The position numbers and the translations under genes were made by a program. From the NCBI RefSeq assembly GCF_002854065.1, contig NZ_CP024147.1: 64,000 nucleotides of DNA, one strand, 5' to 3'. Under the pieces are notes generated by a model that was not told the DNA's origin, made no database searches, and saw only the letters and a program-made list of their open reading frames with translations. The DNA is from Escherichia coli. Lineage in GTDB: Bacteria; Pseudomonadota; Gammaproteobacteria; Enterobacterales; Enterobacteriaceae. Below are positions 11,144-13,867 of the stretch, piece by piece (position 1 is the stretch's first letter; each line of letters starts with the position of its first letter).

Positions 11144-13342
11144 ATGTCGACTCCTGACAATCACGGCAAGAAAGCCCCTCAATTTGCTGCGTTCAAACCG
11201 CTAACCACGGTACAGAACGCCAACGACTGTTGCTGCGACGGCGCATGTTCCAGCACGCCAACGCTCTCTGAAAACGTCTCCGGCACCCGCTATAGCTGGA
11301 AAGTCAGCGGCATGGACTGCGCCGCCTGTGCGCGCAAGGTAGAAAATGCCGTGCGCCAGCTTGCAGGCGTGAATCAGGTGCAGGTACTGTTCGCCACCGA
11401 AAAACTGGTGGTCGATGCCGACAATGACATCCGTGCACAAGTTGAATCTGCGGTGCAAAAAGCGGGCTATTCCCTGCGCGATGAACAGTCCGCCGAAGAA
11501 CCGCAAGCATCACGCCTGAAAGAGAATTTGTCGCTGATTACGCTAATCGTGATGATGGTAATCAGCTGGGGTCTGGAGCAGTTCAATCATCCGTTTGGGC
11601 AACTGGCGTTTATCGCGACCACGCTGGTTGGGCTGTACCCGATTGCTCGTCAGGCATTACGGCTGATCAAATCAGGCAGTTACTTCGCCATTGAAACGTT
11701 AATGAGCGTAGCTGCTATTGGTGCGCTGTTTATTGGCGCAACGGCTGAAGCTGCGATGGTGTTGCTGCTGTTTTTGATTGGTGAACGACTGGAAGGCTGG
11801 GCCGCCAGCCGCGCGCGTCAGGGCGTTAGCGCGTTAATGGCGCTGAAACCAGAAACCGCCACGCGCCTGCGTAACGGTGAGCGGGAAGAGGTGGCGATTA
11901 ACAGCCTGCGCCCTGGCGATGTGATTGAAGTCGCCGCAGGTGGACGTTTGCCTGCCGACGGTAAACTGCTCTCACCGTTTGCCAGTTTTGATGAAAGCGC
12001 CCTGACCGGCGAATCCATTCCGGTGGAGCGCGCAACGGGCGATAAAGTCCCTGCTGGTGCCACCAGCGTAGACCGTCTGGTGACGTTGGAAGTATTGTCA
12101 GAACCGGGAGCCAGCGCCATTGACCGGATTCTGAAACTGATCGAAGAAGCCGAAGAGCGTCGCGCTCCCATTGAGCGGTTTATCGACCGTTTCAGCCGTA
12201 TTTACACGCCAGCGATTATGGCCGTCGCCCTGCTGGTAACGCTGGTGCCGCCGCTGCTGTTTGCCGCCAGCTGGCAAGAGTGGATTTATAAAGGCCTGAC
12301 GCTGCTGCTGATTGGCTGCCCATGTGCGTTAGTTATCTCCACGCCCGCGGCGATTACCTCCGGGCTGGCAGCAGCGGCACGTCGTGGGGCGTTAATTAAA
12401 GGCGGTGCGGCGCTGGAGCAGCTAGGTCGTGTTACCCAGGTGGCGTTTGATAAAACCGGTACGCTGACCGTCGGTAAACCGCGCGTTACCGCGATTCATC
12501 CGGCAACGGGTATTAGTGAATCTGAACTGCTGACACTGGCGGCGGCGGTCGAGCAAGGCGCGACGCATCCACTGGCGCAGGCCATCGTGCGCGAAGCACA
12601 GGTTGCTGCACTCGCCATTCCCGCCGCCGAATCACAGCGGGCGCTGGTCGGGTCTGGCATTGAAGCGCAGGTTAACGGTGAGCGCGTATTGATTTGCGCT
12701 GCCGGGAAACATCCCGCTGATGCATTTGCTGGTTTAATTAACGAACTGGAAAGCGCCGGGCAAACGGTAGTGCTGGTAGTACGTAACGATGACGTGCTTG
12801 GTGTCATTGCGTTACAGGATACCCTGCGCGCCGATGCTGCAACTGCCATCAGTGAACTGAACGCGCTGGGCGTCAAAGGGGTGATCCTCACCGGCGATAA
12901 TCCACGCGCAGCGGCGGCAATTGCCGGGGAGCTGGGGCTGGAGTTTAAAGCGGGCCTGTTGCCGGAAGATAAAGTCAAAGCGGTGACCGAGCTGAATCAA
13001 CATGCGCCGCTGGCGATGGTCGGTGACGGTATTAACGACGCGCCAGCGATGAAAGCTGCCGCCATCGGGATTGCTATGGGTAGCGGCACAGACGTGGCGC
13101 TGGAAACCGCCGACGCAGCATTAACCCATAACCACCTGCGCGGTCTGGTGCAAATGATTGAACTGGCACGTGCAACTCACGCCAATATCCGCCAGAACAT
13201 CACTATTGCGCTGGGGCTGAAAGGGATCTTCCTCGTCACCACGCTGTTAGGAATGACCGGACTATGGCTGGCGGTGCTGGCAGATACGGGTGCGACGGTG
13301 CTGGTGACAGCGAATGCGTTAAGATTGTTGCGCAGGAGATAA
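11144..13342 (+). CDS. zntA: Zn(II)/Cd(II)/Pb(II)-translocating P1B-type ATPase ZntA
   Basis: 732 aa; N-terminal metal-binding GMDCAACARKVE, CPC transmembrane motif, DKTGTLT phosphorylation site, GDGINDAP hinge. Confidence 0.97.
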   Translation: MSTPDNHGKKAPQFAAFKPLTTVQNANDCCCDGACSSTPTLSENVSGTRYSWKVSGMDCAACARKVENAVRQLAGVNQVQVLFATEKLVVDADNDIRAQVESAVQKAGYSLRDEQSAEEPQASRLKENLSLITLIVMMVISWGLEQFNHPFGQLAFIATTLVGLYPIARQALRLIKSGSYFAIETLMSVAAIGALFIGATAEAAMVLLLFLIGERLEGWAASRARQGVSALMALKPETATRLRNGEREEVAINSLRPGDVIEVAAGGRLPADGKLLSPFASFDESALTGESIPVERATGDKVPAGATSVDRLVTLEVLSEPGASAIDRILKLIEEAEERRAPIERFIDRFSRIYTPAIMAVALLVTLVPPLLFAASWQEWIYKGLTLLLIGCPCALVISTPAAITSGLAAAARRGALIKGGAALEQLGRVTQVAFDKTGTLTVGKPRVTAIHPATGISESELLTLAAAVEQGATHPLAQAIVREAQVAALAIPAAESQRALVGSGIEAQVNGERVLICAAGKHPADAFAGLINELESAGQTVVLVVRNDDVLGVIALQDTLRADAATAISELNALGVKGVILTGDNPRAAAAIAGELGLEFKAGLLPEDKVKAVTELNQHAPLAMVGDGINDAPAMKAAAIGIAMGSGTDVALETADAALTHNHLRGLVQMIELARATHANIRQNITIALGLKGIFLVTTLLGMTGLWLAVLADTGATVLVTANALRLLRRR

Positions 13343-13347
13343 GGCAA

Positions 13348-13425
13348 ACCGATCGCAACATTGAGCGCGATCGGTCCCCTCGCTCCTCTGGGGAGAGGGT
13401 TAGGGTGAGGGGAAAAGGCGGCATC
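13348..13425. terminator. Stem-loop plus G-rich palindromic element between convergent zntA and tusA
   Basis: 8-bp stem ccgatcgc/gcgatcgg directly after zntA stop, followed by cccctcgctcctctggggagagggttagggtgagggg. Confidence 0.4.
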
Positions 13426-13443
13426 GAAGCCAATCTGCCCCCA

Positions 13444-13689
13444 TCAACCACCTTTACGAATCAAATAACGATAAGGCAGTCCATCCGTCTCTTTGGCAAC
13501 CAGTTCGTGTTCCATAAAGGTACAAAACCCAGGGATATCGCGGGTCGTCGCCGGATCGTCAGCAATAATCAGCAACGTTTCACCTGGCTGCATATTGCGC
13601 ACTGTTTTGCGCACCATCATTACTGGTTCCGGGCAGCGCAGGCCAAGTGCGTCGAGTGTGTGGTCAGGGCTGGAAAAGAGATCGGTCAT
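13444..13689 (-). CDS. tusA: Sulfur carrier protein TusA
   Basis: 81 aa, [33 protein letters not shown]..., conserved CPxP motif. Confidence 0.95.
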
Positions 13690-13867
13690 TTTCTTCTCAT
13701 CACATAAAAAAACGGCGCTAGTTTACGCCCTGTGAGTCCGTAAGCAAACCAGGTTAACGATTGCGTAAAAATTAACCATTGCATTGTCAACGTAAAGCAG
13801 TATCATGCGGCGGCTCGAAAAAAGGGTAAGCACGTTATTATGTTAAGGTAACAGACGTGTCGTACGT

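Follow-up and report, generated by a model that had tools for sequence, protein, structure and literature searches.

The convergent genes zntA and tusA of E. coli face each other across a short spacer that is rich in G/C and in dyad symmetry, which raises the question of what this DNA is and whether it ends, or protects, the transcripts that run into it. In the window, the whole 64-kb stretch of E. coli DNA that was analysed and to which all coordinates refer unless K-12 is named, the zntA ORF occupies 11144-13342 on the plus strand and the tusA ORF 13444-13689 on the minus strand, with a spacer of 101 bp between them. The same gene order is annotated in the orthologous region of K-12, and the K-12 RefSeq annotation contains no repeat feature in the zntA-tusA spacer. 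Two mechanically called ORFs that cross the spacer, 13236-13451 (minus) and 13264-13707 (plus), were discarded as out-of-frame translations of the repeat and the neighbouring genes. The features of the spacer and its borders are as follows.

13336-13347, minus strand: partly U-rich tail UUGCCUUAUCUC, 3' of the hairpin on the tusA-sense strand (nT 2.1-2.8, against 5.1 for an 8-U tail).
13340-13342, plus strand: zntA stop codon TAA, from the ORF end and the K-12 annotation at the orthologous position.
13348-13356, plus strand: left arm of the stem-loop, ACCGATCGC, from the inverted repeat; locus-specific, single-copy and outside the conserved BoxC flank.
About 13356-13417, plus strand (the G-rich strand): full BoxC unit, made up of a 5' flank of ~21 nt, a 36-nt triplex core and the 3' flank GAAAAG.
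13357-13366, plus strand: 10-nt loop of the stem-loop, AACATTGAGC, within the conserved BoxC 5' flank.
13367-13375, plus strand: right arm of the stem-loop, GCGATCGGT, which closes the BoxC 5' flank on its 3' side (consensus ..CGgACGGTC, from the flank alignment of 11 copies).
13377-13386, plus strand: pyrimidine (Y) arm of BoxC, CCCTCGCTCC, from the sequence and entry 16 of Table 1 in PMC4666352.
13378, plus strand: projected 3' end of the zntA mRNA (K-12 3608685; SMRT-Cappable-seq Rich_TTS row 3606421-3608685, forward, b3469).
13384, plus strand: C>T relative to K-12, from the window/K-12 alignment, which turns one C-G pair of the Y/R duplex into T.G (one G.G-C triplet).
13387-13389, plus strand: BoxC loop 1, TCT, from the sequence and the published table.
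13390-13399, plus strand: purine (R) arm of BoxC, GGGGAGAGGG, the Watson-Crick partner of the Y arm.
13400-13402, plus strand: BoxC loop 2, TTA, which makes this copy a TMECO 'type A'.
13403-13412, plus strand: third (reverse-Hoogsteen) arm of BoxC, GGGTGAGGGG, a mirror image of the R arm, as in the class II purine-motif architecture.
13444-13446, minus strand: tusA stop codon TGA, from the ORF end and the annotation.

Judged by its sequence, the G-rich block is a copy of the known E. coli interspersed repeat BoxC (PIT, TMECO), already catalogued in K-12. Its core, CCCTCGCTCC-TCT-GGGGAGAGGG-TTA-GGGTGAGGGG at 13377-13412, reads as Y arm, loop, R arm, loop and mirror purine arm, which is the class II arrangement. 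Table 1 of Holder et al. 2015 lists 23 K-12 copies, among them TMECO no. 16 (CCCTCGCCCCTCTGGGGAGAGGGTTAGGGTGAGGGG, 'type A mm') at K-12 3,608,684-3,608,719 (PMC4666352). This copy sits in the K-12 zntA-tusA spacer and, with an offset of 3,595,307 between K-12 and window (zntA ends at 3,608,649 in the former and at 13342 in the latter), maps to 13377-13412. Over 141 aligned nucleotides the window and K-12 differ at four positions, one of them in the core (C>T at 13384), and they are identical from 13320 to 13383, that is, to ~6 nt beyond the projected 3' end. Because the alignment excludes non-orthology, the window copy is the ortholog of TMECO no. 16, and the family that the original prediction had left as uncertain is BoxC/PIT/TMECO. 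The element is thus already known: it belongs to a catalogued family whose description dates from the 1990s and which was taken up again in 2000-2015, and the zntA-tusA copy itself stands in a published table. According to PMC4666352, BoxC was first found in the 1990s, renamed 'potential intrastrand triplex' (PIT) by Hoyne and Maher, and named TMECO by Holder; the names attached to the family, known since 1992, are Bergler 1992, Bachellier in the 1990s, Hoyne & Maher 2000/2002 and Holder et al. 2015.

Ten other K-12 copies, with no. 16 left out, were made into a profile HMM, whose sole window match was at 13352-13428 (64.9 bits, E = 1.5e-19), with the nhmmer posterior high from about 13356 to 13417. 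Eighteen K-12 BoxC loci were fetched, all of them intergenic on inspection, and eleven copies, the window copy and ten from K-12, were aligned in register. Conservation in this alignment spans -21 to +6 around the 36-nt core, with the 5' consensus cAAaAacG.Gc.CGgACGGTC and the 3' consensus GAAcAg; the conserved core plus flanks of the K-12 copies fits the length of 56 bp given for BoxC in the literature. Furthermore, BLAST against 5,426 complete E. coli genomes found the 39-nt core in 5425 of them. The number of places per genome ranges from 1 to 33 with a median of 18, and nearly all are on the chromosome (64 of the 90826 places lay on plasmids). The proposal of a short interspersed enterobacterial repeat was thereby borne out. 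The G/C-rich string that had been singled out, cccctcgctcctctggggagagggttagggtgagggg, is present exactly as described at 13376-13412, and the 22-mer forming its 3' part, GGGAGAGGGTTAGGGTGAGGGG, was found a single time in the window, where shuffles predict 0.00 occurrences.

The stem-loop that had been noticed directly after the zntA stop is equally real, but it is longer than the 8 bp assigned to it: 13348-13356 and 13367-13375 form a perfect 9-bp stem (6 of 9 pairs G-C, arms 100% complementary) that starts 6 nt past the stop codon. The predicted RNA fold on the plus strand has -14.8 kcal/mol and z = -4.46, with none of 200 dinucleotide shuffles as stable, and the fold on the minus strand has -18.1 kcal/mol. 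In the same 5,426 genomes the stem-loop segment 13343-13376 (34 nt) was found at one place per genome; by copy number, uniqueness in the genome therefore holds for the stem-loop only, whereas BoxC is multi-copy. Nevertheless, the stem-loop and the G-rich block, both non-random, are not the two separate elements they had been taken for. The flank conservation and the HMM match place the loop (13357-13366) and the right arm (13367-13375) within BoxC, and the complement upstream of the flank that allows a hairpin to form is found at zntA-tusA only and is absent from the other K-12 copies. Among the copies compared, then, the composite hairpin appears as a peculiarity of the zntA-tusA locus, in which the left arm alone is locus-specific.

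We also considered the substitution that distinguishes the window core from its K-12 ortholog. Holder et al. searched with a strict pattern, CCCTCNCCC N3-6 GGGNGAGGG N3 GGGNGAGGG, which had no match in the 64-kb window; the pattern is a search heuristic, and membership in the family rests on homology and orthology. With one position relaxed, the pattern matched at 13377-13411, and the K-12 ortholog passes its strict form; the window copy fails it because of the single C>T at 13384. This change weakens the predicted RNA and DNA folds by 1.5-3.6 kcal/mol relative to the K-12 allele, in folding programs that allow Watson-Crick and G.U pairs only. Since the exact 39-mer with T was the best match in 2,718 of 5,466 records, the T allele is a common one and no sequencing oddity. 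The intrastrand-triplex data (CD/NMR) presented in PMC4666352 cover consensus oligonucleotides rather than the T allele.

To locate the ends of transcripts, we turned to published K-12 data. SMRT-Cappable-seq (Yan et al. 2018, PMC6131387, Supplementary Data 1, Rich_TTS) gives a forward-strand zntA unit with its start at 3,606,421 and its 'novel TTS' at 3,608,685, which corresponds to window position 13378, 3 nt past the last base of the stem, as measured in K-12. The table records 184 reads at the TSS and 15 ending at the TTS; its two columns for read-through hold 38 and 64, with 187 nt as the median length of read-through (PMC6131387). Among the 117 reads reaching the TTS, 13% (15) stop there, 32% stop within the next 50 nt, in BoxC, and 55% (64) go on into antisense tusA, a split between the last two classes that assumes that, in the Rich sheet, the headers 'passing' and 'within 50 bp' have changed places. 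The swap was judged from internal consistency: the large eighth column goes with large medians, and zero with a median of 0. Support for this end comes from one dataset, in rich medium, with 15 reads, and in M9 the same method called no zntA TTS. SMRT-Cappable-seq cannot separate termination from processing, and its libraries leave out RNAs below 1 kb, which places the monocistronic tusA mRNA outside their reach. Adams et al. 2021 (PMC7815308) provide curated Term-seq 3' ends, in files that are complete, and none of these lies at 3,608,600-3,608,799; the TERMITe supplements contain no entry for zntA, tusA or the spacer coordinates. The mapping of 3' ends thus returned one end, K-12 3608685 or window 13378, from the long reads and none from Term-seq. 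The zntA end beside the stem has been published in the long-read data, yet undiscussed.

On the opposite strand, the bicyclomycin data list a Rho termination region at K-12 3,607,955 (minus), antisense to zntA, with a score of 2.9 and p = 2.8e-5; the score derives from 800-nt windows, of which the upstream one extends to the spacer (PMC7815308). The region lies ~730 nt beyond the spacer on the tusA strand. Its sensitivity to bicyclomycin suggests that some minus-strand transcription crosses the hairpin, to be halted by Rho over the following ~730 nt. It may instead reflect an antisense promoter in zntA rather than read-through from tusA.

Next to the transcript data, the variation of the spacer bears on what the hairpin and the repeat might do. 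At least 80% of the 101-bp spacer is covered in 5,098 of 5,426 E. coli genomes, and a single 101-bp allele, here called A, accounts for about 93-94% of genomes. A 301-nt query, with alleles fetched from a spread listing of its matches and aligned, revealed at least four structural alleles in E. coli, of which three depart from allele A.

Allele B: a two-REP BIME between zntA and BoxC.
Allele C: an extra ORF and a BIME; the BoxC 5' flank is kept and the three-arm core is gone.
Allele D: an extra 102-codon ORF (frameshifted) and one REP; BoxC is truncated in its third arm.

The extra ORF is present in 318 of 5426 genomes (5.9%) and has no Pfam match. We considered whether allele C might be an 'empty site' that preceded the insertion of BoxC; this was ruled out, because the conserved 5' flank ..TTGAGCGCGATCGGTC remains, which points to a core deletion.

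A TusA scan of 100,044 species genomes returned 80 loci, and in 45 of these zntA and tusA are convergent, with spacers of 0 to 1,251 bp that are occupied by unrelated palindromes. The Citrobacter spacer holds REP-like units, and those of Enterobacter soli and of a further locus (L068) hold two-arm CCCTCTCCC/GGGAGAGG hairpins. In E. albertii the spacer contains an extra ORF, a REP, a degenerate BoxC and the stem, whose loop is 17 nt long there (ACCGATTGC...GCGATCGGT), and another locus from the scan (L034) has the stem and a full BoxC. Because E. albertii and L034 carry them, the hairpin and BoxC predate E. coli. Reconstructed from these aligned alleles, the common allele arose by loss of the ORF and the BIME, deletion in the loop and a T>C change that perfected the stem. 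The alternative that the stem of the common allele is a deletion junction or the product of quasi-palindrome correction was rejected, since E. albertii and L034 share the stem with a longer loop, which makes it ancestral. In the Escherichia alleles, the RNA of the plus strand is predicted to retain the hairpin at -9.6 to -14.8 kcal/mol, partly by means of G.U pairs; on the minus strand alleles B, C and D fold less stably (-5.6 to -10.1 kcal/mol), because the G.U pairs of the plus strand become C.A mismatches. On the basis of two variable stem positions, these modelled folds weakly favour a role in the zntA transcript.

Collectively, these findings make it probable that the ortholog of TMECO no. 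16 and its locus-specific complement together provide a leaky hairpin for zntA 3' ends, a structure other than a canonical terminator, and that the BoxC core is a tolerated passenger. The 9 locus-specific nucleotides at 13348-13356 are exactly complementary to the last bases of the BoxC 5' flank and pair with them, giving a stable hairpin that lies 6 nt beyond the zntA stop, and this hairpin would act as a leaky structure that defines the 3' end of the zntA mRNA and protects it. Its main action would be that of a barrier that stops 3'-to-5' exonucleases once transcription has ended further downstream; it might perhaps also serve as a weak, non-canonical site of pausing or termination. Exonucleolytic trimming back to the hairpin fits the data better than intrinsic termination, given an end 3 nt past the stem, the lack of a U-tract and the heavy read-through. 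On the tusA strand, termination would probably be completed by Rho within antisense zntA, as the bicyclomycin-sensitive region suggests. The role of an mRNA-stability element, one of the two that had been proposed, accordingly stays plausible for the hairpin part. The BoxC core, in turn, would be a passenger tolerated in a convergent spacer and the mark of a structurally unstable locus. It has no demonstrated cellular function, and the one property documented for it is that its single strands form a triplex in vitro: in PMC4666352, the three-arm core folds in vitro as an intrastrand purine-motif DNA triplex, PIT elements lacked promoter and terminator activity in earlier assays (Hoyne & Maher, as cited there), and in vivo DMS footprinting revealed no triplex. 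In the literature searched, we found no work on BoxC function after 2015.

The alternative that survives best places the role of the element in DNA only: the arms, when single-stranded, would fold as an intrastrand purine-motif triplex, stall polymerases and promote rearrangements, making the locus an instability hotspot without a role in RNA. The Y-R-H architecture is indeed intact, with 10 triplets, among them the G/A mismatch usual in the family and a T.G specific to this allele, and both oligonucleotide triplexes in vitro and an excess of variability around TMECO loci have been published. The four or more structural alleles, which include the truncation of the third arm and the deletion of the core, and the 318 genomes with the extra ORF would likewise suit such a hotspot. 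However, the in vivo footprinting reported in PMC4666352 showed no triplex, the REP/BIME copies in the variant alleles could equally drive rearrangements, and the great majority of genomes share one 101-bp allele. Moreover, a function confined to DNA accounts neither for the conservation of the hairpin nor for the RNA 3' end mapped beside it, and we regard it as unlikely.

A second alternative makes BoxC itself an orientation-dependent RNA element of convergent gene pairs. When transcribed in the G-rich sense, it would add a second strong, exonuclease-resistant hairpin that protects the 3' end (here joined by the co-opted complementary flank); in the C-rich sense, it would be a G-free, YC-rich and thus rut-like loading site for Rho. 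The C-rich, tusA-sense strand does contain a G-free run of 23 nt, CCCCUCACCCUAACCCUCUCCCC, proposed to stop convergent read-through, although 23 nt is little for a rut site, and some bases of the run are able to pair with the G-containing arm. At four of the seven convergent K-12 loci, a Rho region lies less than 800 nt downstream in the C-rich direction (hemB 165 nt, frlR 80 nt, ilvC 335 nt and tusA 730 nt), against about 9% of random 800-nt strand segments that hold one, and at zntA-tusA no plus-strand Rho region, the G-rich direction, is listed between 3606645 and 3610794. Yet the distances scatter from 80 to 730 nt, two convergent loci show no Rho region and one shows it 1350 nt off; convergent antisense read-through is commonly terminated by Rho in any case, and the control in the opposite direction exists for one locus only. 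Convergent genes flank 7 of the 18 K-12 BoxC loci, co-directional genes 9 and divergent genes 2; with an assumed background of 12-20%, the convergent excess has a binomial P of 0.003-0.05. Called TTSs lie in or beside BoxC at argF (289240) and hemB (388690) as well; SMRT-Cappable-seq TTSs coincide with BoxC at three of 18 loci (zntA, hemB and argF), which are too few, and the null too uncertain, for a claim of enrichment. Earlier reporter assays, as PMC4666352 relates them, found no terminator activity. We hold an orientation-dependent RNA role of BoxC to be quite improbable.

Finally, we compared the hairpin with what is expected of an intrinsic terminator. The 9-bp stem exceeds the minimum of a GC-rich stem of at least 5 bp; the loop of 10 nt falls outside the 3-8 nt of a short terminator loop, and a U-tract follows the stem on neither strand. 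On the plus strand the tail is CCCCUCGCUCC (nT 0.15), as had been anticipated for the zntA strand, where no canonical U-tract was expected. A d'Aubenton-Carafa-type score, in our own implementation of the formula, gave a d-score of -63 on the plus strand and of -13 to -27 on the minus strand (tail UU(U)GCCUUAUCU), whereas the same stem with 8 U scored +27. A scan for consensus promoters and terminators found nothing in the zntA-tusA spacer, and an Rfam search of both strands gave no match reaching the gathering threshold. The two sub-threshold matches were set aside, Hrs13 (RF02631; 19.7 bits against a threshold of 52), whose match is confined to hairpin, stems and U-run, as a generic hairpin/terminator likeness, and ylbH (14 against 50 bits) as a generic resemblance. 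The hairpin is no canonical intrinsic terminator on either strand. A bidirectional Rho-independent terminator, in which the GC-rich hairpin would free RNA polymerase in both the zntA and the tusA transcript, might draw on the stability of the hairpin on both strands, the A-containing stretch upstream that reads UUUGCCUUAU on the tusA strand, the zntA 3' end adjoining the stem and the weak but full-length match to the terminator-bearing sRNA model Hrs13, but we judge it very improbable in view of the negative d-scores, the 10-nt loop, an end only 3 nt past the stem and outside any U-tract, the 15 of 117 reads that end there while about 87% go on, the lack of a Term-seq 3' end, the Rho-dependent region further along the minus strand and the earlier assays that found PIT/BoxC without terminator activity. 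That part of the original prediction is accordingly unsupported.

The present analysis adds local detail to a known element: the loop and right arm of the stem-loop come from the flank of the repeat, the zntA 3' end lies beside the stem, and the spacer is polymorphic. With its natural allelic series, the zntA-tusA spacer is a convenient place to probe an RNA-level role of BoxC after the negative reporter assays of 2002. An orientation-dependent RNA role, if true, would be the first cellular function for a repeat family known since 1992.

Compared with the BoxC/PIT/TMECO family, the window copy is alike in its three arms, the TTA second loop of 'type A', the internal G/A mismatch, the conserved flanks, the intergenic location and the multi-copy occurrence; it differs in the C>T at 13384 and in having its 5' flank recruited into a 9-bp hairpin with a unique upstream sequence. 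With bidirectional intrinsic terminators it shares a single GC-rich hairpin between convergent stops that folds on both strands and has a transcript 3' end adjoining it. Unlike these, however, the spacer hairpin is without flanking A- or U-tracts, has a 10-nt loop and negative d-scores, and is read through by most transcripts.

Closer parallels come from hairpins that act after transcription. Dar & Sorek (2018) reportedly described stem-loops at which exonuclease trimming sets the 3' ends of Rho-terminated transcripts. The zntA hairpin resembles these in being a stable hairpin without a U-tract at a mature 3' end, with read-through and a bicyclomycin-sensitive region near by, and differs in that the sole Rho signal found at zntA-tusA is on the opposite strand.

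REP/BIME units are likewise short, GC-rich palindromic repeats that are concentrated past the 3' ends of genes and between convergent genes. They have no sequence similarity to the element studied here, and the GCCGGATG-type unit of 35-40 nt is absent from window positions 13343-13443; apart from Citrobacter, it is just the minority alleles B, C and D that have REP/BIME copies in the zntA-tusA spacer. REP hairpins protect upstream mRNA from 3' exonucleases, and this protection is the very role that we infer for the zntA hairpin.

Among E. coli strains, the spacer between the convergent genes zntA and tusA takes at least four structural forms, measuring 101, 268, 484 and 555 bp (window 13343-13443 compared with strains L002, L003, L004 and L005). 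What distinguishes these alleles is a BIME, an additional ORF, a shortened BoxC third arm, or loss of the BoxC core with its 5′ flank retained. A C>T substitution in the pyrimidine arm of BoxC (window 13384) is common to the 101-bp allele and to allele B, which bears a two-REP BIME between zntA and BoxC. The exact 39-mer with the T allele was the best match in approximately half of all records, and K-12 and O145 carry C at this position. The extra hypothetical ORF was located in two of the strains as follows:

L004, 433-741 (-): 102-aa ORF (WP_000385055/56)
L005, 1633-1941 (-): 102-aa ORF (WP_000385055/56)

Of 5426 E. coli genomes, 318 carry this ORF in the zntA-tusA spacer; it also occurs in E. 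albertii (L006, L007), and a Pfam search of its product returned no match. Downstream of the ORF, a strong hairpin (GCCTGATAGCC-TCT-GGCTATCAGGC) adjoins the zntA stop. The ORF was probably ancestral and subsequently lost from most E. coli. Separately, a mechanical 71-aa ORF at window 13236-13451 (-) spans the BoxC repeat, which is translated as ...PLTLTLSPEERGD...; at any BoxC copy, false gene calls are likely for such ORFs.

Across other Enterobacterales, zntA and tusA were convergent in 45 of the 80 TusA loci returned (L006-L085), with spacers of 0 to 1251 bp, the minimum occurring, for example, in some Pantoea and Kosakonia. Different palindromes have entered the spacer independently: Citrobacter has REP-like units, for instance, and the spacers of Enterobacter soli (L010) and of locus L068 contain the two-arm hairpins CCCTCTCCC/GGGAGAGG. 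The tusA-sense strand of the window itself carries a hairpin resembling a terminator, GGCGTAAACTAGCGCC and then GTTTTTTTAT, at 13714-13729 (-) with a tail to approximately 13704. Located within the tusA/yhhQ divergent region, this hairpin precedes the tusA start codon (13689) by only approximately 25 nt and could act as a leader or an attenuator, or have arisen by chance.

Transcript 3′ ends were mapped relative to other K-12 BoxC copies by SMRT-Cappable-seq (PMC6131387). At argF and hemB (loci L087 and L086), the argF end fell 6 nt beyond BoxC no. 4 (NC_000913.3 289240 (-)) and the hemB end 10 nt inside BoxC no. 5 in both media (NC_000913.3 388690 (-)). The adk end was situated 60 nt past BoxC no. 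6. In the Rich_TTS sheet of Supplementary Data 1, the column ‘reads passing through TTS’ has apparently been interchanged with the column ‘reads within 50 bp downstream’, relative to the header and the M9 sheet. The read-through medians follow the eighth column in the Rich_TTS sheet.

Bicyclomycin-sensitive Rho regions (PMC7815308) were found 80-730 nt downstream of the repeat, in the direction of C-rich-strand transcription, at four of the seven convergent K-12 BoxC loci, a comparison for which the opposite-direction control covers one locus:

K-12 388499 (-): Rho region, bicyclomycin-sensitive
K-12 3504972 (+): Rho region, bicyclomycin-sensitive
K-12 3959826 (+): Rho region, bicyclomycin-sensitive
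K-12 3607955 (-): Rho region, bicyclomycin-sensitive

At BoxC no. 20, between the convergent genes ilvC and ppiC (L102), Term-seq placed one 3′ end per gene, at K-12 3959499 (-) and 3959531 (+). Between these ends lies a bidirectional hairpin of canonical type, AAGGCCTTCTCC-NGG-AGAAGGCCTT, immediately adjoining the repeat; at this locus, BoxC accompanies a real terminator rather than substituting for one.
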